Source: Gammaproteobacteria bacterium (GTDB lineage: Bacteria > Pseudomonadota > Gammaproteobacteria > Tethybacterales > Persebacteraceae). Taken from it: a stretch of DNA of 64,000 bases. Positions 3,495 through 39,980 of this stretch are shown here, piece by piece; the first letter of the stretch is position 1, and every line of letters begins with the position of its first letter. Location: contig OZ244916.1 of NCBI GenBank assembly GCA_965221835.1, positions 1,785,643-1,849,642 on the forward strand, written 5' to 3'. A program made the translations under genes and the position numbers. Below the pieces are notes generated by a model. It was not told the DNA's origin and ran no database searches. It saw only the letters and a program-made list of their open reading frames with translations.

Positions 3495-3562
3495 CCCCGA
3501 ATTATACGCCGATTTTCGGCGTTCCCCGAATCGTCCATTTTGCGGAAAAATGAATTGAACGG

Positions 3563-4309
3563 TTATACGGCGTGAATGACAATTTTCGGCATTTCGTCCC
3601 AAGTTCGTTTTTGGAAACTCCTGCCGTTGGCGTGTTTGCCGCGTTTTACGCCGTCCGCGCCCCACGCGCCCCATTGTTTGAAGAAAAATTTGGCATTCGC
3701 GGCGCGGCATTGCCGCTTAATATTCGCCACCCATTCTTTTTGCATCGGACGCGCCTTTCGTCCGGATTCGCCGCCGACAATAACCCAATGAATTCCTTCC
3801 AAACTACGCCGAATATCGCCGAGATCTTCCAGCAACGGTTCCACCGACAAAAAACGAACTTCGGCGGAGATGTCGCGCAATATGCCGATGCGCGGCACGC
3901 CGTGCCTTTTGTTTTCCACCGAAACGCCCAGCCACGCATTCGGCGGCGCGGCGCGAACGGAAAAATATTGTCGCATCACCTTCGGTCGTTTGGTAAGAAT
4001 TTGATAAGTATGCCGCGGCGTTTCGCGAATCGTGTCCATCACTTTGTCAATGAACGGGAACGGTACGCCGGGATGAAATAAATCGGACATGGAATTGACG
4101 AAATAAATTGTCGGCGTTTTGCGGCGGCGCGGTGCGTCCAATCGCCCCTCGTGAAGCGACAACGCGAATCCGTTTTCATATCCCGCCGCACCCATCGCCC
4201 GCAGACGGTGCGCCATCGTTTCGGCATAACAATTTTTGCACCCCGCCGACACCTTAGTACACCCAGTCACCGGATTCCAAGTTTGCTCCGTCCATTCAAT
4301 TGACGACAT
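3563..4309 (-). CDS. phage Gp37/Gp68 family protein (DUF5131), three-Cys motif
   Basis: MSSIEWTEQTWNPVTGCTKVSAGCKNCYAE N-terminus typical of the Gp37/Gp68 family. No adjacent TcmP-like partner gene. Confidence 0.7.
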   Translation of the reverse strand: MSSIEWTEQTWNPVTGCTKVSAGCKNCYAETMAHRLRAMGAAGYENGFALSLHEGRLDAPRRRKTPTIYFVNSMSDLFHPGVPFPFIDKVMDTIRETPRHTYQILTKRPKVMRQYFSVRAAPPNAWLGVSVENKRHGVPRIGILRDISAEVRFLSVEPLLEDLGDIRRSLEGIHWVIVGGESGRKARPMQKEWVANIKRQCRAANAKFFFKQWGAWGADGVKRGKHANGRSFQKRTWDEMPKIVIHAV

Positions 4310-4425
4310 TATGAGTTTCCTCCGTATTTGCTAAATAAATAATACGCTATTTTGTTTGCCGTGTGGTTTGCAAAACAAAATCGGCGAAAGTATAACAAAT
4401 TTTTAACGGCGCAAAAATGTTCCGC

Positions 4426-4479
4426 GGTGGACATTGCGGCAAAAATTGTGGACATTTTTTTGTTTCAATGTCCACATTT
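4426..4479. promoter_or_regulatory. operator-like site: inverted repeat TGTGGACATT-N10-AATGTCCACA plus an upstream direct half-site GTGGACATT
   Basis: Perfect 10-bp inverted repeat at 4447-4456 / 4467-4476. Extra half-site at 4428-4436. Lies in the upstream region of the Gp37/Gp68 gene. Confidence 0.4.
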
Positions 4480-4535
4480 AATCCGTTGCAAACCACATGT
4501 TCCGCCGTGCAACCATGCATTTGCGCGGAATTGCC

Positions 4536-4564
4536 GCCCCAAAATTTCCGCCTTTCGGGCGGGG
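4536..4564. repeat. 29-bp hairpin-forming repeat CCCCAAAATTTCCGCCTTTCGGGCGGGGG, copy 1 (copy 2 at 6146-6174)
   Basis: Identical 29-mer occurs twice as a direct repeat bracketing the RT gene and its upstream non-coding region. It contains the hairpin CCGCC-TTTC-GGGCGG. Confidence 0.75.
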
Positions 4565-4954
4565 GGGCGAAGTGCAAATCCGCACCAACGGATTCGCGGA
4601 GATGAAATTCCGCATGATTCTTCCGTTCGGCGGGCGGGGGAATCCTCGCCGTTGCCTTTTCCGAAAAAAATTATCCCCCGAAAGCGGAACATTGAAAAAT
4701 TTCATATTTTTGGGAGATCAGAGGTTGAAATTTTGTGGCGAAATCCATATAATGAAATTTATGAAATGGAAATAATTTCAATATCGGCGACAAGTGCTTT
4801 CAAGCCCTCTTTGTAGGGGAAATTTCGCTTATCGCCTTTCGATTTGCGCCAAATCAGCGCAATATCGCAAGGGCACAGTATCGCGACATCGTTTTTTTGC
4901 GTTTTTGCGCGATATTTGCAAAAAGTGAAACTATCAGCAGTAAAAAGCTGACGG

Positions 4955-5200
4955 TAAGGGTTTACTTGAAAACAAGGCAAATTTGGCATTTGTCGCTTAT
5001 TATGGCTGACGGAATAAGTATTCCGAATGTCATACGCAACCGGCATTGTGGTTAGCGGTCAGAACAGAAAGGAGGATAAAATGAACTGTTTAATATCATG
5101 CCGGGGTAAATTGCCTTGTTGGTTCTTTGCGATCGGTTGGAAAACGCCAAAATTTAGCGTTTCAATAATCATCGTGCGTTGGAATCAAGAGTAAACCCCA
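4955..5200 (+). ncRNA. candidate retron msr-msd non-coding RNA
   Basis: 9-bp inverted repeat GGGTTTACT (4958-4966) / AGTAAACCC (5190-5198) in a1/a2-like positions, with a2 ~30 nt upstream of the RT start. Internal 13-bp long-range inverted repeat (4971-4984 / 5108-5120). Small hairpins ggaataagtattcc and aaacgc-N9-gcgttt. Structural inference only. Confidence 0.35.
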
Positions 5201-5228
5201 ACAACCGCTTTTATATGAATGGTTTTTT

Positions 5229-6134
5229 ATGATTTGCACCCCAAACCCCATTATTCGCCCTGAATCGCTGTTGAGATTGTTGCGCATCAACAAAAAACAC
5301 CTGCACGACATTTTGTCCGACAAGGAACGCTTTTATACATCTAAAACGCTAACCAAGTGCGACAAAAAAAGGAATGTTTATATTATCAAGAAGCCGTTGA
5401 AACAAATTCTTGATACCATGAAAGACACTATTTTTCTGAATGTGCAATATCCCGCATATCTTCACGGTTCACTGCCGGGAAAAAGCCCGAAGACGAACGC
5501 TAGCGCGCATTGCGGTGCGGTTTCGGCAGTATTGATGGATATTCAATCCTTTTTCCCCTCTATCACTTGCGAGCATGTATATTATATGTTCCGGCATCGC
5601 TTCCAATTTTCCAAAAAAGTATCCAAAATGCTGGCGGACATTATCACATACGATGGGCGGCTTCCCCAAGGATCGCCCGTGAGTTCCTATATTGCAAATT
5701 TGGCGTTGCGAGGCGAAGGCGAATTATATCGGTCGCTTGTTGCCAAAAATTACTGCTATACGCGATATGTAGATGATATTGCCATTTCTTCGCGTTCTAG
5801 TTTGTCGGAGGTGGAATTGCTTAAAATTAAGAAAGAGGTTCAATGTTTGATTAAACATAACAATCTCCATATCAAACGAAAAAAGACCCAACTGTGCAGA
5901 GCGGGAGCGCGTATCGTAATCACCGGATTAGTTGCAGGATCTAACGGTCCCCGAATTCGCAAAGAATATGTTGCGGATGTGCTGGATGATATAAAAGAAA
6001 TATCAAGCCGCGGATTTCACAATGCCGAAATCCAAAGTATCCAAGGCAAGATTCAATATGTTCGCCAATTTTCCTCCTCCAAAAAAGAAGGAGATTATTT
6101 GGACAGACAATTAAGAATCGCCTTGGAAAATTAG
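5229..6134 (+). CDS. retron-type reverse transcriptase
   Basis: RT motifs DIQSFFPSI, LPQGSPVSSYIANLAL, YVDDIAISS. Retron-specific VTG-like motif (ARIVITGLVAG). 301 aa, typical retron RT size. Confidence 0.85.
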   Translation: MICTPNPIIRPESLLRLLRINKKHLHDILSDKERFYTSKTLTKCDKKRNVYIIKKPLKQILDTMKDTIFLNVQYPAYLHGSLPGKSPKTNASAHCGAVSAVLMDIQSFFPSITCEHVYYMFRHRFQFSKKVSKMLADIITYDGRLPQGSPVSSYIANLALRGEGELYRSLVAKNYCYTRYVDDIAISSRSSLSEVELLKIKKEVQCLIKHNNLHIKRKKTQLCRAGARIVITGLVAGSNGPRIRKEYVADVLDDIKEISSRGFHNAEIQSIQGKIQYVRQFSSSKKEGDYLDRQLRIALEN

Positions 6135-6145
6135 CGGGAAAATCA

Positions 6146-6174
6146 CAACTCCCTCCCCAAAATTTCCGCCTTTC
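6146..6174. repeat. 29-bp hairpin repeat, copy 2
   Basis: Identical to 4536-4564. Confidence 0.75.
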
Positions 6175-6509
6175 GGGCGGGGGCGGTTTTGATTTGTTTG
6201 CGGAAATCAGAAGCGATGTACGGAATCCAAACGGAGTTTTCCTTTGTTTGCGAAATCGCCGATTTGTCGCCAATTAAATCCGGCTGACTTTGCATGCTCG
6301 CAAACGTCTATACCCTCAAACGAAAGCGGCGATTTCGGCGTACTGCAACCCGTAATCAGTACGGCGGCGAAAAGAATAGCGGTTCCGATATACAAAGCCG
6401 ACAAAACGCAACGGGAAGAAATCGCCCTCGTTAAACAACGGCAATCCCGCCGCCGCAACGCCGAACGCGGCAAAGCGAAATCCGTCCTCAAATAGTTATA
6501 ATTCAAGGA

Positions 6510-7385
6510 ATGTTCCCAGCCGACATCCAAAAAGAGACCTTTTTTACTCTTGGCGATCAAACGCCGAGTCGCTATCAGTTGTTGGAAACGATTACCCGGT
6601 ATGATAAATGGGGGATGATAAAATTTAAGTTCTCCGACATAATTCAGCGTGCGTTTGCAAAGCAAACAGGACTGGATTTGTTCAATGATTGGCACGACTC
6701 CGAAGCGATGTGGCGCAAATTTGATTCTGATGAGGAATGCCAACTGGCGAAAAAATGGATAAACGAACAAGGGGGTAACACTGTGGTCATCCGCAGTTTG
6801 TTGTCGCTGTGTCTCGCCTTGGATTTTCAAATGCGGACCGGCGACGGGAAAATTGCAGGCAGAACGGAAACGGGAGAATTGGTATACCAAGCCAAACCCA
6901 AAAAAGGACAATCCGCATGGCTCGAAGAAAACCGGCGAGCCATCGGCGTGCTGGTCAACCTCCTCTCCGCAAAAATTCAAAATACCGCCGGCTATCAGAG
7001 TGCCGCATATATCGCCGCCGTTCCGTCCTCTCCCGACAAACCGCTGGATTTGCCGACGGAGTTGGCGAAGCGAATTGCGGAAAAAACGAATCTGCACGAC
7101 ATCGGTGCGGGATTTTCGTATGCCAGCGACAAATTAATGCTTAAAGAAGTTTCCGCGGATAAAAAATGGGTGGAGTTGGAAAAATCCGGAATGGCATTTG
7201 ACCGAAATAAAGGCGGCGCAACCAATCGGCAAAAAGGCGTGATTTTGTTGGACGATTTATATCAATCCGGTGCTACAATGCATTATGCCGCAATGCAGAT
7301 GCAGCGGGCGGGGATGTCGCGCATTTTGGGTTTGACGGCGGTGAAGACAATGCGAAACGATGACAATCAGCAACGAGACAATTGA
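6510..7385 (+). CDS. phosphoribosyltransferase (PRTase)-domain protein, ComF-like; putative retron effector component
   Basis: C-terminal type I PRTase PRPP-binding signature VILLDDLYQSGATM. N-terminal ~190 aa of unknown function. Confidence 0.7.
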   Translation: MFPADIQKETFFTLGDQTPSRYQLLETITRYDKWGMIKFKFSDIIQRAFAKQTGLDLFNDWHDSEAMWRKFDSDEECQLAKKWINEQGGNTVVIRSLLSLCLALDFQMRTGDGKIAGRTETGELVYQAKPKKGQSAWLEENRRAIGVLVNLLSAKIQNTAGYQSAAYIAAVPSSPDKPLDLPTELAKRIAEKTNLHDIGAGFSYASDKLMLKEVSADKKWVELEKSGMAFDRNKGGATNRQKGVILLDDLYQSGATMHYAAMQMQRAGMSRILGLTAVKTMRNDDNQQRDN

Positions 7386-8085
7386 AATTCCGCCGGAGCA
7401 TCGGCTGTATCCGGCGCGGGCGGAGGCGTTTTTGCGCGCGCGTCCGGTATTGTCGGCGATGGGCAACACTTCTTTGTTGACCGCCCCTTTTTCGCTGGGA
7501 ATATGCGGGTCGCGCACCGACGAACGCGGCATTGACGCCGCACGCGCGTTCGTGGAGCAACTCGCGCGCGAAATGCCGGAAATTGTCATTGTCTCCGGCA
7601 ATGCGGCGGGAACCGATTTGGCGGCGCATTACACCGCGCTGAAAAACGGTATTGGAACGATTTTTGTATTGCCGGAAGGCGTTTCGCATTTTCGCATCCG
7701 CAAACAACTGCGCGAAGTTTGGAGTTGGGAAAAAGTGTTGGTTGTCAGTCAATTTCCCGCGGACGCATGTTGGGCGGTGGGGCGGGCGATGGCGCGCAAT
7801 CATCTTATTTTGGCGTTGTCGCGCGCGATGCTGGTTTCCGCCGCCGGAAGTGTCGGCGGCACAAAAGCCGCCGCAGACGCCGCCGTCCGCCACAAAGTTC
7901 CGCTGTTCACTGTCGGCTACAAAGAAAGTTCCCCCGTTGGCAATGTGGATTTGCACCGCCGCCGCTATGCGTTGCCGGTCGGGAAAAAACCGGGCACCGA
8001 TCATGCGAATGTGGACAAAATCGTGCAGACGATAATCGCCTCCGGCGGCGCGGATTCGGCGCAAAACTCTTTCGCTTTGCAATAA
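7360..8085 (+). CDS. DprA/Smf-family (Rossmann/SLOG-like) protein, standalone
   Basis: IVIVSGNAAGTDLAAHYTAL and VLVVSQFPADACWAVGRAMARNHLILALSRAMLVSAAGSVGGT match the DprA Rossmann-fold core. Start overlaps the stop of the PRTase gene (translational coupling). Confidence 0.7.
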   Translation: MTISNETIEIPPEHRLYPARAEAFLRARPVLSAMGNTSLLTAPFSLGICGSRTDERGIDAARAFVEQLAREMPEIVIVSGNAAGTDLAAHYTALKNGIGTIFVLPEGVSHFRIRKQLREVWSWEKVLVVSQFPADACWAVGRAMARNHLILALSRAMLVSAAGSVGGTKAAADAAVRHKVPLFTVGYKESSPVGNVDLHRRRYALPVGKKPGTDHANVDKIVQTIIASGGADSAQNSFALQ

Positions 8086-8286
8086 TCGGCGAATAATCGC
8101 GTTGCGATATTCCCGCCCGTTGCAGTCAAAACGCGAGGCGTACAAACAAAGATATTCCGCGTTTTTGTCCTGCTGCAAATACGAAAACAACTGCCCGCCG
8201 TTGCCCTCCATTTTTTAGTTTCGTTGTCGCATTCCGCGCCCCAAGTTTTGCATTCAATATGCGCGAAAACATTTATAATTGCGGCG

Positions 8287-11200
8287 ATGGGAGAGCGACC
8301 GGTTATTTTGGATAATCAACGCGCGGCGGTGGCGGAATATCTGCGCGCGTGTTTGGAGGGCGCGGATTTGTTTCGCATCGTTTCGGCGTATTTTTCGGTT
8401 TTCGGATATGAAACGTTGGCGGAAAAACTGGAATCCGCGTCCGCGCCGAAAGTGCGTTTTTTGTTCGGCGCGCCCGATTCGGCGGACGATGCCGAATCGG
8501 GCGACAAAACGCAGCGCGTTTTTGCGTTGACCGAATCGGGTTTGTCGGCGAACGAAATGTTGCATCAGCGCGAACTCGCCGAACGATGCGCGGCGTGGAT
8601 TCAAAAAAGTACGGAAGTACGAAAAATTTCGCGACAAAATTTTTTGCACGGCAAAATGTATCATCTGGAATCGAACGCGGACGGCGCGGCGGTGGTCGGC
8701 AGTTCCAACTTTACGCGGCGCGGGATGGGAATGTCGCGAAATCCGAACATAGAAATTAATCTTGCAACGACGAACGCAGAAGATCTCGCCGCGCTGGCGG
8801 AATGGTTTGACGAAGTTTGGGAAGACGAAAAATTAACGGAAGATGCCAAACCGGATCTTCTCGCTGCATTGAAAAGATGGACGGCGGAATACGCACCCGA
8901 ATTTTTATATTACAAAGTTTTGTACGAATTGTTCCGCAACGAAATTCGTGCGCGCGAACAGGAGGGCGACGAATCCGCCGAACGGCTGGACGGTACCGAA
9001 ATATGGAAGACGCTGTACGAATTCCAAAAAGACGGCGCGAGAACCGTCGTCGGGCGGTTGTTGCGGCACGGCGGTTGCATTCTCGCCGACAGCGTGGGAC
9101 TCGGCAAAACTTACACCGCGTTGGCGGCGATAAAATATTTTGAAATGCGCAACAAAAACGTGCTGGTACTTTGTCCGAAAAAACTGGAACAAAACTGGCG
9201 TCTTTATCAGGCGAGTGCCGCCGTTCCGCGCAATCCGTTTGTCGCCGACAAATTCGGTTATCATCTTTTGTCGCACACCGATCTGGGACGCGAAAAAGGG
9301 AAAGTCGGCAACATTGATTTGTCTAAGTTTGATTGGGGCGTTTACGATCTTGTCGTCATTGACGAATCGCACAACTTTCGTAACGATTCTAAAAGTCGCA
9401 GCAACGAAAGCGGCGAAATCGTCCGCCGCAGCCGCTACGAAACATTGCTGGAAGATGTCATAAAAACGGGCGAAAAAACCAAAGTTCTGATGTTGTCGGC
9501 GACGCCGGTTAACAATTCGTTAACCGATTTGCGAAACCAAATTTATTTAATGACCGGCGGGCGCGAAGATGTTTTTGCCGATTCGCTGGGCGTGCGTCAT
9601 ATCAAAACGGTCGTTCGTGCGGCGCAAAGACAATTTCACGAATGGGAAAAACATTCGCACGAAAAGCGGGACAAAGGCGAACTGCTGGCGTCTTTGGGGG
9701 ATGATTTTTTGAATCTACTCGCAGGTGTTACTATCGCCCGTTCGCGGCGGCAGATTAAAAATTTTTACGCCGATTTTATCGCCCGGCATGGCGATTTTCC
9801 GAAGCGCGAAAAACCGCAAAACGAACATCCGCACGCCGATTCGCGCGGCGAGTTTTCGTACGATGAATTGCACGACGATCTTCTGGCATTGAATTTTCAC
9901 ATTTATCGTCCGTCCGATTATGTTGTCGGGGCGGGTGCGCGGGCGCGTTTGGACGAAGAGAAAAAGACGCGCAACTTTAATCAAAAAGATCGCGAAAAGT
10001 TTTTGGTCGCGATGATGCGCGTTAATTTTCTTAAACGATTGGAAAGTTCCGCGCATGCTTGCAAACTCACGCTGGAGCGAACGCTTGCAAAAACGGATGC
10101 GCAAATCGAAAAAATAAATAATTTTTTGCAGCGGCGGGAGGAGGAATCGCAAACAGAACTCCCCGGCGATTCTCCGCGCGAAGCGGAAGGCGAATCGGAG
10201 AACGAATATGCGGAAGACGAAGATTTTGTCGTCAACCGCCGGGCGATGACGCCGTATCGATTATCCGAATTGGATGTGGAAAAATGGCGCGCGGATATGG
10301 CAGAAGACCGGCGCGCTTTGCGGGCGGCGTTGGACAAAGTACAGAAAATTACGCCGGAACGGGACGGCAAAATCGCGCTGCTAAAAAAACAAATCGCCGA
10401 AAAAGCAAAACGCAAAAACCGCAAACTTCTCGTCTTTACCGCCTTTAAAGATACCGCAGAATATCTGTACAATCAACTGCGTAAATGCGCCGAAGAATCG
10501 GGAATAAAAATTGCGTTCGTCGCCGGAGATGAAACCTCTGCCGGCGGCGGGCGAAATGCCTTTCCGGATATTCTCAATCGCTTTTCGCCCCGCGCACGAG
10601 GCGGCGAACCGGGCGCTGATGAAATTGATTTATTAATCGCAACCGATTGCATTTCCGAAGGGCAAAATTTGCAAGATTGCGACACGGTACTAAACTACGA
10701 CATTCATTGGAATCCGGTGCGTTTGATTCAACGTTTCGGGCGCGTAGATCGCATCGGCAGTACGAACAAATCGGTGCGGATGATTAATTATTGGCCGACC
10801 GAAGATATGGATTTTTATCTTAAATTGGAAAACCGCGTACGCGCGCGGATGGCGTTGGCGGATATTGCCGGCACCGGCGACGATGATGCGCTGAACGAAA
10901 AAGAAATGGAAAAATCCGCGCAACAGGAACTGCATTTTCGCAACGAACAACTAAAACAAATGCGCGAGAAAATTAGCGATATGGAGGAAATGGACGATTC
11001 CGTTACGATGTCCGATTTGACATTGGATTATTTCATCACGCAACTTCTCCGTTATCTGCAAAAAAACAAAGACGATCTGGAAGCCGCACCGCCGGGAATT
11101 TATGCGGTCGCGAACGCCGCAGACGGAGAGGCGAAAACCGCACCGCACGACAACGGCGCGATATTTCTTTTTCGCCGCACGAACGCCGCCGAAGACGACC

Positions 11201-11595
11201 GGACGGGTTTTTATCTCGTGCATTGCGAAAACGGAAAAGTGCGCGCGGGGCATCTGAAAGTTCGCGAAACTTTGCGCATTTTTGAATCGCTGGCGAAAGA
11301 CAAAAACAAACCGCTGAAAAAGTTGTGCGACATTTTTTCGCGCGAATTGAAAAGCGAAAACGGCGCGCGCTTTTACGACAAAATGGCAAACGCCGCCGTG
11401 TGCGACATCGGCGACACCGCCGACCGCCGTGCGGGCGAATCGTTGCGGCGCGATGCCGGACGCGGCGGAATGTTGCCGAAAGTTTGCGAACGCCCCGCCG
11501 TCAACAATTTGGAACTCGTTGCGTGGCTGGTCGTCAAAAAAGATGAAATCGGCGCGACAGAGTTGCGCGCGCAACGAACCGCCGCCGATGGTTGA
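8287..11595 (+). CDS. PLD-like nuclease domain fused to SNF2-family helicase
   Basis: N-terminal HKD-like motif HGKMYHLESNADGAAVVGSSNFT. SNF2 motifs DSVGLGKT, DESHNFRN, LMLSATPVNNS, and C-terminal helicase LLIATDCISEGQNLQ...RFGRVDRIGS. ORF track start 8224 is TTG; the first ATG is 8287. Confidence 0.85.
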   Translation: MGERPVILDNQRAAVAEYLRACLEGADLFRIVSAYFSVFGYETLAEKLESASAPKVRFLFGAPDSADDAESGDKTQRVFALTESGLSANEMLHQRELAERCAAWIQKSTEVRKISRQNFLHGKMYHLESNADGAAVVGSSNFTRRGMGMSRNPNIEINLATTNAEDLAALAEWFDEVWEDEKLTEDAKPDLLAALKRWTAEYAPEFLYYKVLYELFRNEIRAREQEGDESAERLDGTEIWKTLYEFQKDGARTVVGRLLRHGGCILADSVGLGKTYTALAAIKYFEMRNKNVLVLCPKKLEQNWRLYQASAAVPRNPFVADKFGYHLLSHTDLGREKGKVGNIDLSKFDWGVYDLVVIDESHNFRNDSKSRSNESGEIVRRSRYETLLEDVIKTGEKTKVLMLSATPVNNSLTDLRNQIYLMTGGREDVFADSLGVRHIKTVVRAAQRQFHEWEKHSHEKRDKGELLASLGDDFLNLLAGVTIARSRRQIKNFYADFIARHGDFPKREKPQNEHPHADSRGEFSYDELHDDLLALNFHIYRPSDYVVGAGARARLDEEKKTRNFNQKDREKFLVAMMRVNFLKRLESSAHACKLTLERTLAKTDAQIEKINNFLQRREEESQTELPGDSPREAEGESENEYAEDEDFVVNRRAMTPYRLSELDVEKWRADMAEDRRALRAALDKVQKITPERDGKIALLKKQIAEKAKRKNRKLLVFTAFKDTAEYLYNQLRKCAEESGIKIAFVAGDETSAGGGRNAFPDILNRFSPRARGGEPGADEIDLLIATDCISEGQNLQDCDTVLNYDIHWNPVRLIQRFGRVDRIGSTNKSVRMINYWPTEDMDFYLKLENRVRARMALADIAGTGDDDALNEKEMEKSAQQELHFRNEQLKQMREKISDMEEMDDSVTMSDLTLDYFITQLLRYLQKNKDDLEAAPPGIYAVANAADGEAKTAPHDNGAIFLFRRTNAAEDDRTGFYLVHCENGKVRAGHLKVRETLRIFESLAKDKNKPLKKLCDIFSRELKSENGARFYDKMANAAVCDIGDTADRRAGESLRRDAGRGGMLPKVCERPAVNNLELVAWLVVKKDEIGATELRAQRTAADG

Positions 11596-11605
11596 AGTTT
11601 GAACA

Positions 11606-14600
11606 ATGGAAAAAACGATGAACGACAATTTGCTGCATAAAACTAAAAACGCCCTCGCCGAATGCATTCGTCCCGCCGAAAACTTCGCCGCCGCGGCGGA
11701 AAACTTACTAAACGCACTCGGCTACGAAAGCGACCGCAAACATGTCGGCGGCAATGATTCGGTACGCGATTTCGTTCGCGATTTTCCCGCGCCGCAAGCG
11801 GAAACAAAAACCGAATCGGAATTCGTCCGCGCCGCAAAATCCGCGCGCATCATCTTTCAATATACCGGAGAAGAAATTAGCAAATCGCAAAACATGTTCG
11901 GCGCGACATTTAACGAGGGCGACATTGAAAGTTTTTTGTTTGTCGCCGTAGAGTTAAAATCCGGCGATTATGCGCGCGGCAAATACGCCGAATTCGCGCG
12001 CGAAATCAACAAGCGATTTGGAATGCCGACGGTCGTTTTGTTTCGCACGGCGGACGGCGCAGATAAATTGTCGCTCGCGTTTGTCGGACGGCGCGCACAC
12101 AAAACCGATTCCGCCCGCGATGTTTTGGAAAAAGTTTCGCTGCTGCGCAATATCAATTGCAACAAACCGCACCGCGGACATTTGGATATTCTTTTGCAAC
12201 TGTCTTTGCAAAATCGGCTGGAATGGATGTCGCGCAACAGCAAGGAAAAAAACTTCGCCGGACTTCTCGCCGCATGGCTGGACGAACTCAACACGGACGC
12301 GTTAAATAAACGTTTTTATGGCGAACTGCTTTCGTGGTTTGAACGCGCAAATCAAAAAATCTGTTTTCCGGCGAACTTGCAAAACAAGCGCGAAGATTGG
12401 ACGATTCGCCTGATTACGCGCCTGCTTTTTGTCTGGTTCGTCAAAGAAAAAAATCTTGTCGCCGAAGATTTGTTTTACAAATCGCAAATTTGCCCGCTGT
12501 TAAAAAATGGTGCGAATCCAACCAACGATTCGTACTATCGCGTTGTTTTGCAAAATCTCTTTTTTGCGACTCTCAATACGCCGATAAAAGATCGCAAATT
12601 CAGCGAAGGCGGACGCGATGCGCATCGCGATTTTTCGCGGTGGCGATATGCCGCCGAAATCGCAAACGACAAATGCAAAGAAAAACTAAAACAACTCTTC
12701 GCGCAAACGCCGTTCATCAACGGCGGACTCTTTGATTGTTTGGACGGCTACGACAGCCCGGCGAGTGCGAAAAACGCCGGACGCGAAGGCGGCGAAGAAC
12801 GGACAGATTATTTTTCGGAATCGTATTACAAAGATTCGCGCATAAAAGACAAGTTGTCGGTTCCCGATTCTTTGTTTTTTGCCGAAAACGGATTGCTTTC
12901 TATTTTCCAAAAATATAAATTTACGGTGGAAGAAAATACGCCGATAGAACAAGAAGTGGCGTTGGATCCGGAACTGCTGGGGCGCGTCTTTGAAAACCTT
13001 CTCGCTTTTTACAATCCGGAAACGCGCGAAAATGCGCGCAAACAAACCGGTTCTTTTTATACCCCGCGCGAAGTTGTAGATTATATGACGCGCGAATCGG
13101 TGGCGGAATGTTTGGCGGCGAAAACCGGTGCGGACGGCGATAAAACGCGCGCGCTTTTGGATTATGCTGCACCTGCTGATCATTCGTTTTCGGCGGCGGA
13201 AGTTAAATCTTTAGTACGTGCAATTTCCGAAATTAAAATTTTTGATCCCGCCGCCGGATCGGGGGCGTTTCCGATGGGCGTTTTGCATCTTCTTACGCTC
13301 GCGCTTTCGCGTTTGGATTCGCAAAATGCGGAATGGCACGAACTGCAAAAAAATCGCGCGCAAAAAGATGCGGCGGAAACCTTTCATCGCGCCGACAAAT
13401 CCGAACGCGGCGAACGGCTGGATGAAATTAACGAAGTTTTTTCGCGCTATTCCGATTCCGATTTCGGGCGCAAATTGTTTCTCATACAAAACAGCATTTT
13501 CGGTGCGGACATTCAGCCGGTCGCATGTCAAATTTCCAAACTGCGATTTTTTATTTCGCTGGCGATAGAACAAAAGCGGGATGCGAACGCGGAAAACTTC
13601 GGCATAAAACCGCTGCCGAATTTGGAAACGCGATTCATCGCCGCCGATTCGCTGATTAAAATCGGCGGCAGGGGACAAGGCGCACTAAAATCGGAAGCGG
13701 CGGCGAAGTTGGAACGCGACCTCGCGGCGAATCGCGAACGGCATTTTAATGCGACCGCCCGCAAAACAAAATTGCACTGCAAAAACAAAGATGAAGAATT
13801 GCGCAAAAAACTTGCGGCAGAGTTGAAAAAAACCAGCGGATTTGATAACGAAGACGCCGGACGCATCGCTGTTTGGAATCCGTACGACCAAAACGCCGCC
13901 GCGAAATGGTTTGATGCGGAATATATGTTCGGCGTCGCCGACGGCTTCGACATCGTCATCGGCAATCCGCCGTATGTGCAATTGCAAAGAGACGGCGGAC
14001 GATTGGCAAATTTATACGCGCCGCAAAACTACGAAAGTTTCGCGCGCACGGGCGATTTGTATATGTTGTTTTACGAACGCGGATTGCAACTTTGCGCGTC
14101 CGGCGGCGGGCTGATGTTTATCACTTCCAACAGTTGGTTGCGCGCAAACTATGGCGCAAATTTGCGCGGCGTTCTCGCCCGCCATAATCCGCGTTTGCTG
14201 ATTAATATGGGCGCGAATGTTTTTGAAAATGTATCTGTTAGCGTGAACATTTTGGGCGTTCAAAATGCACCGAACCGTAATGAATTGTTGGCGAATGATT
14301 TTGTTCGCACGGGCGATTTTCCGCCGTCCGAATGGCATTCCATTGCGCCGAAAAATAAAGACGGATGGGCGATTGTATCCGCGTCTGAAAACACTTTGCG
14401 CGCGAAAATTGAACAGGCGGGAACACCAATTAAGAATTGGAATGTTCGCATGTTTTTCGGTATTAAAACCGGTTATGACAAAGCGTTTTTGATTGATGCG
14501 GCGACCAAACACCGTTTGTGCGCGGAAGATCCGGGCAGTGCGGAAATTATCAAACCGACGATTCGCGGGCGGAATATTGGTAGATACTTTTACGAATCTG

Positions 14601-15193
14601 CTGACGAGTATGTTATCGCTACATTTCCTTCCAAAAATTTGTCTATTGAAAATTTTCCGGCGGTGAAAAAATATTTGCAATCTTTCGGCGACCGTTTAGA
14701 GCAAAGCGGGCGTCCGGGTTGCCGCAAGAAAAGCGCGCATGCGTGGTTTGAAACACAGGACGCAGTCGCGTATTATCCGGAATTTGAAAAAGAAAAATTG
14801 ATTTGGACAGACATCGCCCAAGCCGGACGGTTTTTCTATGACACCGAAAAACTGTACCCGATGGCAAGCGGGTTTGTAATGACCGGAGAAGATATTCAAT
14901 ATCTTCTCGCCGTTCTTAACTCGCGCTTGATCACTTGGTATATGCCAAATGTCGCCGTGAATCTTGGCGATAGCGGGCTTCGATGGAAAAAGATATATGT
15001 GGAAAAACTCCCAATCCCGCAAATTCCCAAAGCGGAACAACGCCCGTTCATAGAGTTGGCACAAAAAATCACCGCCGCCAAAGCAGCAAACCCCGCCGCC
15101 GACACCCACGAATGGGAATCCGAAATAGACCACCGCGTCTACAAACTCTACAACCTAACCAAAAAAGAAATCGCCATAATAGAGGCGGAATGA
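11606..15193 (+). CDS. MmeI/Eco57I-family type IIG-like N6-adenine DNA methyltransferase with N-terminal PD-ExK nuclease-like domain and C-terminal TRD (1195 aa)
   Basis: N-terminal D-x10-ELK (GDIESFLFVAVELK). Motif X FYTPREVVDYM. Motif I DPAAGSGAF. Motif IV IGNPPYVQ. Long C-terminal region. Confidence 0.85.
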   Translation: MEKTMNDNLLHKTKNALAECIRPAENFAAAAENLLNALGYESDRKHVGGNDSVRDFVRDFPAPQAETKTESEFVRAAKSARIIFQYTGEEISKSQNMFGATFNEGDIESFLFVAVELKSGDYARGKYAEFAREINKRFGMPTVVLFRTADGADKLSLAFVGRRAHKTDSARDVLEKVSLLRNINCNKPHRGHLDILLQLSLQNRLEWMSRNSKEKNFAGLLAAWLDELNTDALNKRFYGELLSWFERANQKICFPANLQNKREDWTIRLITRLLFVWFVKEKNLVAEDLFYKSQICPLLKNGANPTNDSYYRVVLQNLFFATLNTPIKDRKFSEGGRDAHRDFSRWRYAAEIANDKCKEKLKQLFAQTPFINGGLFDCLDGYDSPASAKNAGREGGEERTDYFSESYYKDSRIKDKLSVPDSLFFAENGLLSIFQKYKFTVEENTPIEQEVALDPELLGRVFENLLAFYNPETRENARKQTGSFYTPREVVDYMTRESVAECLAAKTGADGDKTRALLDYAAPADHSFSAAEVKSLVRAISEIKIFDPAAGSGAFPMGVLHLLTLALSRLDSQNAEWHELQKNRAQKDAAETFHRADKSERGERLDEINEVFSRYSDSDFGRKLFLIQNSIFGADIQPVACQISKLRFFISLAIEQKRDANAENFGIKPLPNLETRFIAADSLIKIGGRGQGALKSEAAAKLERDLAANRERHFNATARKTKLHCKNKDEELRKKLAAELKKTSGFDNEDAGRIAVWNPYDQNAAAKWFDAEYMFGVADGFDIVIGNPPYVQLQRDGGRLANLYAPQNYESFARTGDLYMLFYERGLQLCASGGGLMFITSNSWLRANYGANLRGVLARHNPRLLINMGANVFENVSVSVNILGVQNAPNRNELLANDFVRTGDFPPSEWHSIAPKNKDGWAIVSASENTLRAKIEQAGTPIKNWNVRMFFGIKTGYDKAFLIDAATKHRLCAEDPGSAEIIKPTIRGRNIGRYFYESADEYVIATFPSKNLSIENFPAVKKYLQSFGDRLEQSGRPGCRKKSAHAWFETQDAVAYYPEFEKEKLIWTDIAQAGRFFYDTEKLYPMASGFVMTGEDIQYLLAVLNSRLITWYMPNVAVNLGDSGLRWKKIYVEKLPIPQIPKAEQRPFIELAQKITAAKAANPAADTHEWESEIDHRVYKLYNLTKKEIAIIEAE

Positions 15194-15196
15194 CCG
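15155..15196. repeat. direct repeat A (3' end of the MTase gene); second copy at 16248-16287
   Basis: ctaaccaaaaaagaaatcgccataatagaggcggaatgacc vs ctaaccaaagagggaatcgccataatagaggcggaatgacc (38/41 identical). Confidence 0.75.
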
Positions 15197-15388
15197 CATC
15201 CAAACCGAACGCGGCGCGGTGATAAAACTGAAAAAACGGGAAGAAATTCGTTCCGCATTTTCGCTGTTATTTGAGCAATCATGCGGGACTTATCAAAATC
15301 GCTATGCAGGAAAGTGTAGATGCGTGGGACTCTGGTGGAATGGCAAATTGATGTATAATTGCGCCGCAACCATTGCAGGAGGTAAAAA

Positions 15389-15715
15389 ATGAAAATATCC
15401 ATCGCCAAAGATTTTTCGGATGTGCCTATCGGGCGTGCCCGGTCGGACGGCGACTATACCGGCGAGGCGTTTCGGGAGGATTGGCTCGTTCCGAAACTGC
15501 GGAAGGCATCGGCGAACGATCCCTTAATCATCAATTTGGACGGCGCCGAGGGGTATCCTTCGTCGTTCCTGGAAGAGGCATTCGGAGGGCTGGTGCGAAA
15601 CGGATACACCGCCGCCGATCTGCACAAACTCTTGAAAATAGAGGCGGGTAGCGGCTATAAAACCTACCGGGATATCATCTGGGATTACATCAAAGCGGCG
15701 GATTCTCTCGATTAA
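15389..15715 (+). CDS. DUF4325 (STAS-like) small protein
   Basis: Strong RBS AGGAGG. Sequence pattern DFSDVPIGRARSDGDYTGEAFRE...LDGAEGYPSSFLEEAFGGLVR matches the DUF4325 family. Confidence 0.6.
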   Translation: MKISIAKDFSDVPIGRARSDGDYTGEAFREDWLVPKLRKASANDPLIINLDGAEGYPSSFLEEAFGGLVRNGYTAADLHKLLKIEAGSGYKTYRDIIWDYIKAADSLD

Positions 15716-16155
15716 TGATGTCGCCTCACATTGTCCAGGCGGTTGTGCTGGTTCTGTGCGTTATCATTACTTTTGTTTTTAACGCGATATTGCAGCATCG
15801 GCTTTTGCATCGGCAAGGCAGGGAAAAAATTATTGATGCTTTGCTGCAATTGGTGGAAGAACAAAAGCAGTTTTACGCCGCCTATTGGGAAAAAGACGCC
15901 GCCGATGGCGCAGTGTCCGCATCCATAAACGAGACGATGCAGCAAACCCGATTTGATGCGCTGTTGGAGTTTGCCGGACGGAAATACAAATTCCGCAATA
16001 TAAACGACATTAATCGTCAGTACAGGAAATTCTGCAAAACGGCAACCGGCGACAACTTTGGCGAAAAAAACAGGGCGGCGAATACCGAAAAAGCGCGGCA
16101 TATTCATGCCATTGCGAACCAAATATACATCATTCTTTTGGAAAACAAAGTGTAG
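15715..16155 (+). CDS. hypothetical membrane protein (1 N-terminal TM helix), translationally coupled to the DUF4325 gene
   Basis: TAATG overlap with upstream gene. N-terminal hydrophobic segment AVVLVLCVIITFVFNAIL. Confidence 0.5.
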   Translation: MMSPHIVQAVVLVLCVIITFVFNAILQHRLLHRQGREKIIDALLQLVEEQKQFYAAYWEKDAADGAVSASINETMQQTRFDALLEFAGRKYKFRNINDINRQYRKFCKTATGDNFGEKNRAANTEKARHIHAIANQIYIILLENKV

Positions 16156-16169
16156 GGACGCAGTGCCGC

Positions 16170-16234
16170 AAAACTCCGTTTTATATCCCGTTTCCGCGCC
16201 GTTTAATTCGGGGCGGTTGCCGGTTTCGGGGTTG
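16170..16234. repeat. direct repeat P' : duplicated 5' end of pip (copy of 17422-17486)
   Basis: aaaactccgttttatatcccgtttccgcgccgtttaattcggggcggtt..cggtttcggggttg is identical apart from 2 nt to the pip start region. It encodes SVLYPVSAPFNSGRL in an out-of-context position. Confidence 0.8.
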
Positions 16235-16247
16235 TATTTTCTACAAT

Positions 16248-16287
16248 CTAACCAAAGAGGGAATCGCCATAATAGAGGCGGAATGAC
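16248..16287. repeat. direct repeat A' (second copy of the MTase 3' end)
   Basis: See 15155-15196. Confidence 0.75.
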
Positions 16288-16321
16288 CAACAACAAAATC
16301 ACCAGCGAAGCGTTTGCTGCG

Positions 16322-16861
16322 TTATTCCCCGCTACCGAGATGTTCCTTGTAGCGTCTTATGAAATCAAGAAATTCCGGCAGAAATTCCTTTTTTTGCTTC
16401 TCATAATCGGCGTCAGAATCGGACGCCGGTTTTGCCACTTTTTCTTTCGCGTCATTCCTGCCGGGACCCCGGAACACCTCGCGCAATAATATGCCGTACA
16501 GCACGATAAAACTAAGGAACGCGCCCGAAACCAGCAACGCTTGCGCCACAGGATGAATCATTTTGATAATATCGGCTGGTTGCATAAAAACGATAAAAAC
16601 GAATGGGAATATCACCCAAGGCGCGATTAGCGTAATGACGATGCTGAAAAACCGAAACCAATAATATTGACGGGCGACAATTTGATTGTGTTCGGTAGTT
16701 GCCTTGTCTCGCTCCTCGGAGTTCTGATTGCGCGCCTCTTCGCGCTCAAAAAACTTCAACATTTTGCCCAGCATCTTCATTTCTTCCTGCCGACGCTCGG
16801 CGTCGTTGAGCATTCCGGCGGACTCGCTGCCAAGTTCGTGATGATTTTTTTCGCCGATCAC
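16322..16861 (-). CDS. membrane protein (2-3 TM), candidate toxin partner of the Panacea-domain gene
   Basis: Hydrophobic core FRFFSIVITLIAPWVIFPFVFIVFMQP...LVSGAFLSFIVLYGILL. ATGA overlap with the upstream Panacea gene. Confidence 0.5.
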   Translation of the reverse strand: MIGEKNHHELGSESAGMLNDAERRQEEMKMLGKMLKFFEREEARNQNSEERDKATTEHNQIVARQYYWFRFFSIVITLIAPWVIFPFVFIVFMQPADIIKMIHPVAQALLVSGAFLSFIVLYGILLREVFRGPGRNDAKEKVAKPASDSDADYEKQKKEFLPEFLDFIRRYKEHLGSGE

Positions 16862-17346
16862 GACAGATCCTTAATCAATTTTTCGTAGTATTCCTTGATG
16901 ATTTCGTTAGGAATCGTGCCGAAATATTGATCTTTGCACTGATCCCACGGCGTGCCTTCGCGGTGTGTTAAATCCGAAAGCGAGAATGCGCCCAAACGCG
17001 AATACCGTTCGTAAACTTTGCTTACGATGTCCGCTTCATCTTCGTTGAGTTTGGTCGTATAGTCCGGAAACTCGCCGAATTCCGGGTCGTACGGACGCGC
17101 CTTGTTTTTGATGACAAACTGCGGCGCGAACGCGCGATATACTTCTGGAATGACCGGTCCGAATTTCCACGCTTGCACCTGATGGCGAATCAGCGGCTTG
17201 CCGGTGTAGCCGAGAGTCCAGCCGTGCGCCAGATATACATATTTTACCAGCGGCATAATCGTCAGCCGCTTTTTCGCGGCGCGCGCTTTGTCGACAAAAA
17301 TGTTCGCAATCGCACGCGAATCATGTCCCTTTTTTCCGAATAGCAT
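16858..17346 (-). CDS. Panacea-domain (DUF4065, SocA-like) antitoxin-family protein
   Basis: LTIMPLVKYVYLAHGWTLGYTGKPLIRHQVQAWKFGPVIPEVY resembles the DUF4065/Panacea N-terminal core. Confidence 0.55.
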   Translation of the reverse strand: MLFGKKGHDSRAIANIFVDKARAAKKRLTIMPLVKYVYLAHGWTLGYTGKPLIRHQVQAWKFGPVIPEVYRAFAPQFVIKNKARPYDPEFGEFPDYTTKLNEDEADIVSKVYERYSRLGAFSLSDLTHREGTPWDQCKDQYFGTIPNEIIKEYYEKLIKDLS

Positions 17347-35558: not shown

Positions 35559-36041
35559 ATGAACGACAATGATAAGAAATTACTTGCAAATAAGAAATTG
35601 TTTGATGCAATTAAGAAAGGCAAGGAAATAGCCCGAGACGATACCAAAAACAAATTGGATGAATTGAATAAAGAAATCAAGGATCTGATTACTAAAGAAA
35701 ACGCGAGTCCGAATGCGAAAATGGATGACGGTTGGACGGTTTTGATGGAGGCGGCAAATGTCGGAAATCTCGAAATTGCCCAAACTCTGATAAATGCAGG
35801 GGCGAATCCGAATGCGGCGAAGGGCTATGGCTGGACGGCTTTGATGGAGGCGGCATATTACGGACATATGACAATTGTCTCTCTTCTGCTGGAAAAAGTG
35901 GTAAATCGGAATGCGGCATTAAATGCGAATTGGACTGCTTTGGATGCCGCAAATCTGGCGTGGCAAAATGCGAAAACTCCGGAAGAGGCGAAAAAGTTTC
36001 AGACAATTGTGGATATGTTTCAAGGGAAAAAGACGGGATAA
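35559..36041 (+). CDS. ankyrin-repeat protein (no signal peptide)
   Basis: Repeats GWTVLMEAANVGNLEIAQTLINAGANPNA / GYGWTALMEAAYYGH. AAGGAG RBS. Confidence 0.8.
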   Translation: MNDNDKKLLANKKLFDAIKKGKEIARDDTKNKLDELNKEIKDLITKENASPNAKMDDGWTVLMEAANVGNLEIAQTLINAGANPNAAKGYGWTALMEAAYYGHMTIVSLLLEKVVNRNAALNANWTALDAANLAWQNAKTPEEAKKFQTIVDMFQGKKTG

Positions 36042-36044
36042 CAA

Positions 36045-36078
36045 AACCGGCGGGGATTCAATGTCCCCGCTTTTTTTG
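36045..36078 (+). terminator. rho-independent terminator (family hairpin CCGGCGGGGATTCAATGTCCCCGC + T7)
   Basis: GC stem followed by T-run immediately after the ank stop codon. Confidence 0.7.
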
Positions 36079-36111
36079 TATTTCTTTACAAAACCAAAAG
36101 GAAAAATCATT

Positions 36112-36438
36112 ATGAAAATCAAATCTATTATTTTGCCGCTGTTTGCGGTTTTTGTTTTGGGTGTGTCCGGTTGTGCGGACAAATCTGGACCGAAATTACG
36201 CGAAATTGAACGAGTTTCGGAAATGTCGGACGAGGAAATTGCCGCCGCAAGAGAGGCGTGTCATCTTATTTCCACAACCGATTATAACTGTTCAGAATTG
36301 GTAAATCCGATTCACGGAATGACTCCGGACGAATGGAAAATTCTCACCGAATCTACGAAAGAATGTCGCAAAAATCAGTTGCTGTCATTTCATCATTGTC
36401 TGCGAGGAAAAGGCGTACGGTACGCCGAATATAATTAA
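36112..36438 (+). CDS. small lipoprotein (conserved MKIKSIILPLFAVF signal, lipobox LGVSGC)
   Basis: ATG at 36112 with RBS AAAGGAAAAATCATT-ATG. Cys-rich mature part. Confidence 0.65.
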   Translation: MKIKSIILPLFAVFVLGVSGCADKSGPKLREIERVSEMSDEEIAAAREACHLISTTDYNCSELVNPIHGMTPDEWKILTESTKECRKNQLLSFHHCLRGKGVRYAEYN

Positions 36439-36441
36439 GCC

Positions 36442-37551
36442 ATGTTTGCCCGTTATGTTTGGATAATCGCCCCGCTGTTTGCGGCGGGGTGCGGCGGGAT
36501 TAACATTTTGCCGGAACCGTTTACTCGCGAACGGGTGGACGGAAAAATTCCGGTAAAAGTAGAATTGATTCGCAAACAAGTACGGGCGGAGTTGGACGGC
36601 GTTCCAGAAGGCGAAGCGGAAGTTTTGCGATGGCAGGTGATTGAAAAAGATTATAACAAATGCCGTTTGTCATCCGCCCGTGCAACAAAATCGGAAGCGG
36701 AGGAAGTTTTCGCCGTGTGCATGTCCGAACAAGGATATGTTTATATGTTGCCGATTGACGCCGAACAATTTCATTGGGATATTGCGGAAAAAGAGGAGGG
36801 TATTTACGCAGAGGAAAAACGAGTAGCGGAAGAACGCCGAATTGCCGCTGAAAAAGAACTGGAAAAACTCCGAGTTGCCGCCGAAAAAAAAGCGGAAGAG
36901 GAACGAATCGCTGCCGAAAAGAAAGCGGAAGAGGAACGAATTGCTGCCGCTGTAAAAGCGGAACAGGAGCGTTTAGAAAACAATTTGAGAATTTATGCAA
37001 GAGACAATGAATTGTCGGAAGTGCGGCGTTTACTTTCTTTGGGCGTTAATCCTAATGCGGTGAATGATGGCGGTGTGACGGCTTTGATGGGGGCTGCATA
37101 TAATGGACATGCCGAAATTGCGAAAATGCTGTTATCGGCAGGGGCGAATCCGAATGTGGTAAATAAGGACGGCTTGACGGCTTTGATAGTGGCGGGAAAT
37201 AGCGAACATGCCGAAATTGCGAAAATGCTGTTAGACGGCGGTGCGAATCCGAATGCGGCGATTATTAACGGCTGGACGGCTTTGATTTTGGTAGCAAATA
37301 AGGGACATGCCGAAGTTGCGAAAATTTTATTGTCGGCGAGGGCGAATCCGAATGCGGTTGATAATAAAGGTATGACGGCTTTGATGGTAGCAGCATTGAA
37401 AGGACATGCCGAAATTATAAAGATATTGATAGCGGGCGGAGCGGAAGTTAATCAGCGTACGCCCGAAGGAAGTACAGCTTTGAGTTTGGCAAAATATAGG
37501 GGCTTTTCCGAGATTGAACGCATTTTGCGAGCGGCGGGGGCGAAAGAATAA
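36442..37551 (+). CDS. lipoprotein with coiled-coil (AEEERIAAEKKAEEERIAA) and C-terminal ankyrin repeats, ending ERILRAAGAKE
   Basis: Signal/lipobox LFAAGC. 4-5 ANK repeats (TALMGAAYNGHAEIAKMLLSAGANPN...). Confidence 0.8.
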   Translation: MFARYVWIIAPLFAAGCGGINILPEPFTRERVDGKIPVKVELIRKQVRAELDGVPEGEAEVLRWQVIEKDYNKCRLSSARATKSEAEEVFAVCMSEQGYVYMLPIDAEQFHWDIAEKEEGIYAEEKRVAEERRIAAEKELEKLRVAAEKKAEEERIAAEKKAEEERIAAAVKAEQERLENNLRIYARDNELSEVRRLLSLGVNPNAVNDGGVTALMGAAYNGHAEIAKMLLSAGANPNVVNKDGLTALIVAGNSEHAEIAKMLLDGGANPNAAIINGWTALILVANKGHAEVAKILLSARANPNAVDNKGMTALMVAALKGHAEIIKILIAGGAEVNQRTPEGSTALSLAKYRGFSEIERILRAAGAKE

Positions 37552-37588
37552 CGGCGAGGATTCCATTTCCCCGCCGTTTTTTTTTACA
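37552..37588 (+). terminator. rho-independent terminator (family hairpin)
   Basis: acggcgaggattccatttccccgccg + T9. Confidence 0.7.
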
Positions 37589-37609
37589 AAACTAAAATGA
37601 AAAATCATT

Positions 37610-38101: not shown

Positions 38102-38136
38102 CGGCGGGGATTCCGTGTCCTCGCCGGTTTTTTTTG
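38102..38136 (+). terminator. rho-independent terminator (family hairpin)
   Basis: cggcggggattccgtgtcctcgccgg + T8. Confidence 0.75.
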
Positions 38137-38185
38137 CGTTTTTACGAATTCGGCGGGATAGGGTTGTTTTCAACCGAAAGAGGAG

Positions 38186-39940: not shown

Positions 39941-39944
39941 CAAA

Positions 39945-39980
39945 AATCGGCGGGGATTCCATGTTCCGCCGTTTTATTTA
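39945..39980 (+). terminator. rho-independent terminator (family hairpin)
   Basis: tcggcggggattccatgttccgccg + T-rich. Confidence 0.65.

Follow-up and report, generated by a model that had tools for sequence, protein, structure and literature searches.

A phosphoribosyltransferase-DprA gene pair in a gammaproteobacterial defense island is a probable minimal toxin-antitoxin module of the ShosTA/PsyrTA class

Introduction

In a 64,000-nt stretch of DNA from a Gammaproteobacteria bacterium (GenBank assembly GCA_965221835.1, contig OZ244916.1, positions 1,785,643 to 1,849,642; hereafter the window), two overlapping open reading frames (ORFs) at positions 6510-8085 lie 3' of a gene for a retron-type reverse transcriptase (RT). 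ORF1 encodes a phosphoribosyltransferase (PRTase)-like protein and ORF2 a DprA-like protein, and the locus raises the question whether this pair serves the RT, belongs to natural competence, is part of a larger restriction-like system or acts on its own. We conclude, with a probability of about 0.75, that ORF1 and ORF2 constitute an autonomous two-gene, type IV-like toxin-antitoxin (TA) abortive-infection module of the ShosTA/PsyrTA class, the mechanism being predicted by homology. This conclusion is carried by direct observations on the folds and motifs of the two proteins, the strict PRTase-then-DprA pairing, the pair's independence of the RT and its location in a defense island.

ShosTA and PsyrTA (RqlHI) are anti-phage TA systems in which a toxin with a PRTase domain is combined with an antitoxin homologous to DprA (Millman et al. 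preprint, bioRxiv 10.1101/2022.05.11.491447; Rousset et al., PMC9122126). ShosT binds phosphoribosyl pyrophosphate (PRPP), interferes with purine metabolism and gives rise to DNA duplications and filamentation (PMC11961720, PMC12961424). ShosA binds single-stranded DNA (ssDNA) and RecA but not ShosT, which places the system in type IV; it is unstable, and shut-off of the host by Gp0.7 of phage T7 frees the toxin (PMC11961720, PMC12961424). Toxicity of ShosT is abolished by the exchanges D331A/D332A (PMC11961720), while R139 and R234 of ShosA are essential for ssDNA binding and antitoxin activity (PMC12961424). A first-pass annotation, made from the sequence of the window alone, had described the pair as being without an obvious toxic domain. 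That description is not supported, as the PRTase protein is the toxin and the DprA-like protein the antitoxin in ShosTA and PsyrTA (PMC11961720, PMC12961424, bioRxiv 10.1101/2022.05.11.491447).

The pair comprises the following features:

6510-7385 (+): ORF1, 291 aa; variable N-terminal region (about residues 1-92), then a type I PRTase domain; predicted toxin, ShosT/PsyrT-like
6510-6786 (+): 5' 92 codons of ORF1; mosaic, variable N-terminal segment
7239-7277 (+): codons of the PRPP-binding loop, VILLDDLYQSGAT, residues 244-256 of ORF1
7360-7385 (+): 26-nt stretch shared by the end of ORF1 and the beginning of ORF2; predicted translational coupling
7360-8085 (+): ORF2, 241 aa; DprA-like Rossmann (SLOG) domain only; predicted ssDNA-binding antitoxin, ShosA/PsyrA-like

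ORF1 resembles ShosT in its predicted structure and PRPP loop

With the sequence of ORF1, the Pfam family Pribosyltran was matched only below threshold (E 0.005), and no meaningful match was obtained in a search of PDB sequences. Among the PADLOC models, PsyrT (9e-8) and ShosT (1e-4) were matched, the former by its C-terminal PRTase part only (model positions 536-688 of 689). Both models also recognize most of the ORF1 family, with matches to PsyrT in 36 and to ShosT in 33 of 39 members. An AlphaFold2 model based on the alignment of this 39-sequence family (pLDDT 79, pTM 0.78) was compared with solved structures by Foldseek. The top PDB match was 8zvc, 'ShosT with PRPP-Mg' (E 4e-4), followed by ComF of Helicobacter pylori and then by adenine PRTases (APRT). 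Since Foldseek finds ShosT, ComF and APRT despite the sub-threshold Pfam match, the modeled structure supports the call of a PRTase fold in a loose sense.

The PRPP loop of ORF1 is intact, with DDLYQSGAT lying within VILLDDLYQSGAT, and its residues D248, D249, Y251, Q252, S253 and G254 are invariant across the 39 family members. The family profile, which detected nothing beyond the PRPP loop when run against PDB sequences, aligns it with the PRPP loops of solved PRTases and with residues 317-369 of ShosT; D248/D249 are equivalent to the ShosT pair D331/D332.

The PRTase part begins at about residue 95 of ORF1. The preceding 92 or so residues were modeled with low confidence as a small beta-alpha-beta-alpha arrangement (pLDDT <50 at residues 1-31), show the lowest conservation in the family alignment and were covered by no match in Pfam, PADLOC or PDB. 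Identity to the ortholog in a syntenic locus (L001; related loci are given L numbers where they have to be told apart) is 30% over residues 1-92 and 98% over residues 93-291, and the DNA homology between the window and L001 breaks at position 6787, inside ORF1. A specificity or regulatory role for this segment is speculation.

ORF2 is a DprA-like protein reduced to its Rossmann domain

ORF2 matched the Pfam family DNA_processg_A (E 6.6e-29) and the PADLOC models of PsyrA (1.2e-32) and ShosA (8.5e-22), and a PDB sequence search returned solved DprA (1e-10) as well as ShosA (9vzo, 0.0035). The PRTase and DprA-like domains named in the first-pass annotation are thus borne out, in a loose sense, by Foldseek for ORF1 and by Pfam for ORF2. 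Residues 30-224 of ORF2 align with residues 122-316 of ShosA, reaching into the region of the ShosA-specific C-terminal helix. R52 and R146 align with R139/R234 of ShosA and with R52/R143 of H. pylori DprA, and the equivalent arginines are kept in 84-85 of 86 partner proteins.

ORF2 has no counterpart of the ShosA SAM domain: its similarity sets in at position 86 in the ShosA model and at residue 122 in the ShosA chain, and no start lies upstream of 7360. Upstream of the DprA domain match, which runs from residue 12, the ATG at 7360 is the sole ATG, GTG or TTG start. The C-terminal domain of DprA is missing from ORF2 as well.

The PRTase and DprA genes are strictly paired across many phyla

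At close range the ORF1 family is rare (7 matches). With the family profile, 48 proteins were found in a word-indexed search and 303 representative clusters at E<=1e-30; relatives occur in at least 158 of 185,579 species genomes and in one of 2.9 million viral contigs. The gene neighborhoods of 86 related loci from many phyla (80 from genomes, 5 from metagenomes and 1 viral) were analyzed. A DprA-like gene was found directly 3' of the PRTase gene and on the same strand in every one of them (80/80, 5/5 and 1/1, respectively), and one relative in the representative library is a fused protein of 958 aa (P0193). The candidate DprA start lies between -26 and +36 nt from the PRTase stop in 83 of 85 related loci; the two ORFs overlap in 45 of the 85, in 32 of those 45 by 4 nt.

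The 26-nt overlap at 7360-7385 was correctly described in the first-pass annotation, and it recurs with both frames kept in L001, in L005 and in L002, whose PRTase is only 54% identical. This conservation agrees with the tight translational coupling that had been proposed from the overlap.

The pair is probably a minimal variant of the ShosTA/PsyrTA class

ShosTA, the system of Escherichia coli APEC O1 and of P2 hotspots, shares with the pair the organization as a two-gene operon for PRTase toxin plus DprA-like antitoxin, the aspartate pair in the PRPP loop of the toxin and the two ssDNA-binding arginines of the antitoxin; among solved structures, PRPP-bound ShosT (8zvc) matches ORF1 best. PsyrTA, likewise a DprA-like antitoxin beside a PRTase-domain toxin, provides the best PADLOC match of both proteins. 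Both window proteins are shorter than these relatives. ShosT has 424 aa and carries an N-terminal PPase-like hydrolase (Rossmann) domain at residues 1-164, whereas ORF1 lacks this domain and has a short variable N-terminus instead. PsyrT (about 690 aa) starts with a RecQ-type helicase, whereas ORF1 has no helicase and matches the C-terminal PRTase only. ShosA (328 aa) has an N-terminal SAM domain at residues 1-94 that ORF2 does not have. Similarity to ShosTA at the sequence level is low (1e-4 for the ShosT hidden Markov model, 0.0035 for the ShosA PDB sequence), and E. coli ShosTA resides in P2 prophage hotspots, whereas the window pair is chromosomal and island-borne. As ORF1 is without PPase and helicase domains and ORF2 without a SAM domain, the pair is a minimal variant, widespread and uncharacterized, of the known class of PRTase toxins with DprA antitoxins.

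By homology, the following mechanism may be envisaged. ORF1 would bind PRPP via its intact loop, and the resulting phosphoribosyl transfer would disturb nucleotide (purine) metabolism and lead to DNA damage or over-replication and to a stop of growth. ORF2, co-translated from the same mRNA as a DprA-like protein of the ssDNA-binding, RecA-loading type, would offset this damage indirectly and not by contact with the toxin. Shut-off of host expression by a phage, or a surge of ssDNA or recombination intermediates that the phage causes in the cell, might deplete or titrate ORF2, and the stable ORF1 toxin would then kill or arrest the infected cell. Toxicity, rescue by the antitoxin, the trigger and the substrate are thus predictions drawn from the characterized relatives.

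Several points weigh against this assignment. ORF1 is only weakly similar to ShosT and PsyrT, and in the PRTase domain alone (the PADLOC values of 1e-4 and 9e-8), the family profile reached only E 0.07 against the ShosT PDB sequence, and neither the PPase domain of ShosT nor the helicase of PsyrT is present. Deletion of the SAM domain destabilized ShosA (PMC11961720, PMC12961424), and ORF2 has none. The short subfamily, with both proteins below the length of the characterized relatives, is itself uncharacterized, and the acceptor substrate is not established even for ShosT. Furthermore, a consensus scan upstream of ORF1 gave no convincing sigma-70 promoter and the hairpin 3' of the RT is only a modest terminator; for these two reasons, co-transcription of the pair by read-through from the RT may occur in this strain.

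The pair is autonomous from the neighboring retron RT

The region between the RT and the pair is organized as follows:

5229-6134 (+): retron-type RT, 301 aa
6135-6509: gap between RT and ORF1, 375 nt; carries a hairpin repeat
6147-6183 (+): terminator-like hairpin repeat; boundary between RT cassette and pair, outside the machinery of the pair
6184-6509 (+): non-coding leader 5' of ORF1; travels with the pair

The 375-nt gap and its hairpin repeat had been noted in the first-pass annotation and are confirmed by the end of the RT at 6134 and a hairpin at 6163-6183. A 37-nt direct repeat has copies at 4529-4565 and 6147-6183, and the second of them contains this hairpin, whose stem and T-rich tail scored as terminator-like in a terminator scan. 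Within the 64-kb window, the 29-nt repeat core occurs exactly twice, as compared to 0.00 occurrences expected by chance. In L005, two copies were found with the core as a probe and a diverged third one at 8698-8729 by blastn, and each copy sits at a cassette boundary.

Comparison of related loci separates the pair from the RT. A retron-like RT was found within 6 kb of the pair in only 2 of the 86 loci (L005 and L078, convergent in the latter). On both flanks, L001 and the window share 97.7-99.2% identity; L001 has the pair but no RT, and its gene order is guaB, DUF5131, a TcmP-like gene in the place of the RT, PRTase, DprA, HKD-Snf2 and type IIG methylase. In L005, a 64%-identical RT is followed by a gene for a 523-aa AriA/PtuA-like ATPase and only then by the leader and the pair. 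Positions 6145-10355 of the window match 8691-12900 of L005 at 98.8% identity, a block that includes gap, ORF1 and ORF2; since it follows the ATPase gene in L005 and not the RT, the gap belongs to the pair. Conversely, no PRTase or DprA gene was found near the relatives of the window RT in L006 and L007. The RT cassette also differs in GC content, with 41-43% vs 53-59% in the 3' part of ORF1 and ORF2. Among the PADLOC models, RT_VI and not type III was matched best by the RT (1.9e-66), and those of retron PRTase effectors were not matched by ORF1.

Hence, the adjacent RT is a cassette exchanged on its own within the same repeat-bounded hotspot, and the pair is autonomous from it, their adjacency being merely incidental in a variable defense island. 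The first-pass annotation had allowed for independent action of the pair, which agrees with the rarity of nearby RTs and with the arrangement in L001. Its likening of the pair to a type III-like retron effector is contradicted by the type of the RT, by the missing match to retron PRTase effectors and by the 2 of 86 loci, and co-occurrence of the pair with RTs in other genomes, which it had suggested looking for, amounts to the same two loci. It had also pictured, as an outcome that would speak against its proposal, a pair occurring without RT neighbors and in competence operons; the pair is indeed widespread without RT neighbors, but it is not found in competence operons.

A plus-strand ORF of 83 aa in the gap (6244-6495) was rejected as coding, as it is frameshifted in the 98.8%-identical L005. 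On the minus strand, a putative 65-aa ORF at 6207-6404 starts with a signal and lipobox resembling those of lipoproteins (MSALYIGTAILFAAVLITGC...); in L005 (8753-8950) this ORF is intact, with a TTG start.

The pair lies in a defense island beside a helicase-methylase gene set

Two further features define the surroundings of the pair:

3563-17346: defense island with DUF5131, retron, pair, HKD-Snf2, type IIG methylase and Panacea-type antitoxin
8224-15193 (+): HKD(PLD)-Snf2 helicase plus methylase; HKD-Snf2 matches PADLOC C3a139 (7.8e-112)

The defense context suggested in the first-pass annotation is evident from this island with its several defense genes. Directly 3' of the pair, the HKD-Snf2 gene is followed after 10 nt by the start of a gene for a 1195-aa type IIG-like methylase (Eco57I/TaqI_C), and the two are a candidate two-gene restriction-like system. 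Between ORF2 and HKD-Snf2 no significant structure and no evident terminator were found. Only one fragment was recovered when metagenomes were scanned with the HKD-Snf2 protein.

In a Pfam census of the 121 nearest neighbors of related pairs, 118 different families were counted and no universal third gene was found; the commonest families were SNF2/ResIII/Helicase_C (5-6 loci), PLDc_2 (3) and NOV_C (3). About 10% of the relatives lie inside SNF2-helicase/methylase operons, some with a DprA-methylase fusion. Operon-like SNF2 genes on the same strand adjoin the pair in six distant genomes, as homologs of HKD-Snf2 in L041, L071 and L076 and as SNF2+NOV_C (HmaA-like) genes in L059, L070 and L074. 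L059 (6673-10719) and L074 (6534-10946) encode fusions of the DprA domain with a methylase-like protein (DUF1156, HmaB/DrmMI-type); in L070 (6816-7956) the contig ends within a DUF1156-like extension of the DprA domain. The DprA-DUF1156 proteins lie 3' of the SNF2+NOV_C and PRTase genes, so that the PRTase-DprA module is embedded in Hma-like operons. In L002 the type IIG methylase is still adjacent to the pair, in a permuted order.

Alternative explanations

The neighborhood of the pair would permit it to be read as an integral module of a larger helicase/methylase system, in the window composed of PRTase, DprA, HKD-Snf2 and type IIG methylase. The DprA-like protein could then direct either the methylase or the helicase/nuclease to ssDNA; alternatively, the TA pair could act as an in-built suicide fallback of the restriction-like system. 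Such a role is consistent with the SNF2 genes next to the pair in the window, L001, L005 and the six distant genomes, with the DprA-DUF1156 fusions 3' of the SNF2+NOV_C gene in L059 and L074, with the methylase that remains adjacent in L002 and with the lack of an evident terminator between ORF2 and HKD-Snf2. However, about 90% of the related loci have neither an SNF2 nor a methylase neighbor, and two genes suffice for ShosTA. Nesting need not mean functional dependence either, as Hma operons are insertion hotspots for defense systems, 66.5% of them carrying insertions, and PsyrTA is listed as nested in a BREX operon (PMC11232893). For these reasons a nested autonomous TA pair is the simpler reading, and we regard an integral role in such a system as rather unlikely. 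The more general proposal, that PRTase-DprA is a component recruitable by SNF2-helicase/methylase systems (Hma-, DISARM- or HKD-Snf2/type IIG-like) and that positions 6510-15193 of the window are one four-gene system, is similarly doubtful; if it were true, the DprA-like domain would couple ssDNA sensing to restriction-like defense and to PRTase-mediated suicide.

Far less probable is a novel type of retron in which the RT, its non-coding RNA (ncRNA) or multicopy single-stranded DNA (msDNA) as well as the pair form a tripartite system, for example with the DprA-like protein binding msDNA and restraining the PRTase toxin. RT and pair do lie next to each other on one strand, separated by a weak terminator; the RT is intact (YVDD, NAxxH, VTG), is preceded by a conserved promoter, comes with a structured RNA whose closing stem covaries, and is not accompanied by the canonical helix-turn-helix (HTH) partner of type VI. 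PRTase-like effectors are moreover known from type III retrons such as Retron-Eco11 (III-A3), where effectors of clusters 67/113 are specifically and repeatedly linked to RT and ncRNA, usually with a winged-helix partner (PMC7736814), and these share with the pair the PRTase fold beside a retron RT and the defense context. Yet they differ from it in the winged-helix partner as opposed to the DprA-like ORF2, and the RT is not a conserved neighbor of the ORF1 family: 84 of the 86 related loci and the syntenic L001 have the pair without it, the ATPase gene intervenes in L005 and the closest RT relatives have no pair beside them. Retron effector models do not match ORF1, and the base composition and the repeat-bounded cassette structure set RT and pair apart. 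That ORF1 and ORF2 are ordinary ComF and DprA genes for natural transformation or recombination is hardly credible. Their resemblance to ComF(C) and DprA is genuine, comprising a type I PRTase with H. pylori ComF as second Foldseek match, a member of the DprA superfamily with the Rossmann/SLOG fold and ssDNA-binding arginines, and the name 'predicted amidophosphoribosyltransferase', in the style of COG1040/ComFC, given to ORF1 relatives at JGI. Against this, ORF1 reached 16.6 bits with NCBIfam TIGR00201 (comF, cut-off 233.55) and ORF2 79.6 bits with TIGR00732 (dprA, cut-off 191.15), the window domains are truncated, with SAM and C-terminal domains missing from ORF2, and the pair sits in a strain-variable defense island. 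Its strict linkage as a PRTase-DprA operon in many phyla is the signature of ShosTA/PsyrTA.

The retron cassette and other features of the window

Apart from its relation to the pair, the RT cassette (4566-6146) has the look of a retron complete in itself, with the 37-nt repeats at its borders. At 4725-4753, the promoter-like sequence TTGAAA-17-TATAAT is conserved in L005 and L007. Upstream of the RT, which carries the motifs YVDD, NAxxH and VTG, a structured RNA is predicted at 4955-5205 (-76.8 kcal/mol, z -3.76), with the closing stem GGGTTTACT/AGTAAACCC and a compensatory change to GGGTTCACT/AGTGAACCC in L005/L007. An Rfam scan of 3500-9000 gave nothing above threshold. None of the small ORFs near the RT or within the gap had a Pfam match, and no Cro/C1 HTH (type VI) partner was found among them. 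Inside the putative ncRNA, just 5' of the RT, a hydrophobic ORF of 34-42 aa with a strong Shine-Dalgarno sequence (AAGGAGG) was found in all four RT loci, which could encode a small peptide effector or be a by-product of conservation at the RNA level. Its positions are:

window, 5081-5194 (+): putative hydrophobic ORF
L005, 5846-5959: putative hydrophobic ORF
L007, 515-619: putative hydrophobic ORF
L006, 5843-5971: putative hydrophobic ORF

The DUF5131 gene at 3563-4309 (-), matching PADLOC PDC-M30B/M41B, is without its usual upstream partner (4310-4530). This partner is a 352-aa PDC-M30A (TcmP-like) protein in L001 and a 279-aa PDC-M41A protein in L005; in the window the retron cassette is found instead. 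The 523-aa ATPase gene of L005 (7109-8680, AriA/AriAB/PtuA-like) is likewise a cassette flanked by copies of the hairpin repeat, which the window may have lost, or never gained, by recombination between repeat copies. Downstream, a SocA/Panacea-domain antitoxin gene at 16858-17346 (-) has beside it, on what would be its downstream side, a 179-aa ORF (16322-16861) for which no Pfam match was found; they are probably another TA pair, marking the end of the island. No DUS/USS uptake sequences were found in the window. Elsewhere in it, the 16-mer GGCGAATCCGAATGCG occurs 27 times, mostly at a spacing of 99 nt (35801-43271 on the plus and 61179-61293 on the minus strand), and probably reflects tandem repetition of a 33-aa unit in the gene for a very large protein.

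Implications

The RT of this locus, being one exchangeable cassette, cautions that adjacency alone is insufficient for the assignment of retron effectors. The recurrent nesting of PRTase-DprA modules in SNF2/methylase operons, with fusions of DprA to methylase-like proteins, is a lead worth following. Taken as a TA pair of the ShosTA/PsyrTA class, ORF1 and ORF2 suggest a likely function for a widespread family, present in at least 158 of 185,579 species genomes, that is now unannotated or labeled 'hypothetical' or 'amidophosphoribosyltransferase'. If toxicity of ORF1 and rescue by ORF2 hold, the PPase or helicase domain of the toxin and the SAM domain of the antitoxin would not be essential to the mechanism of this class.

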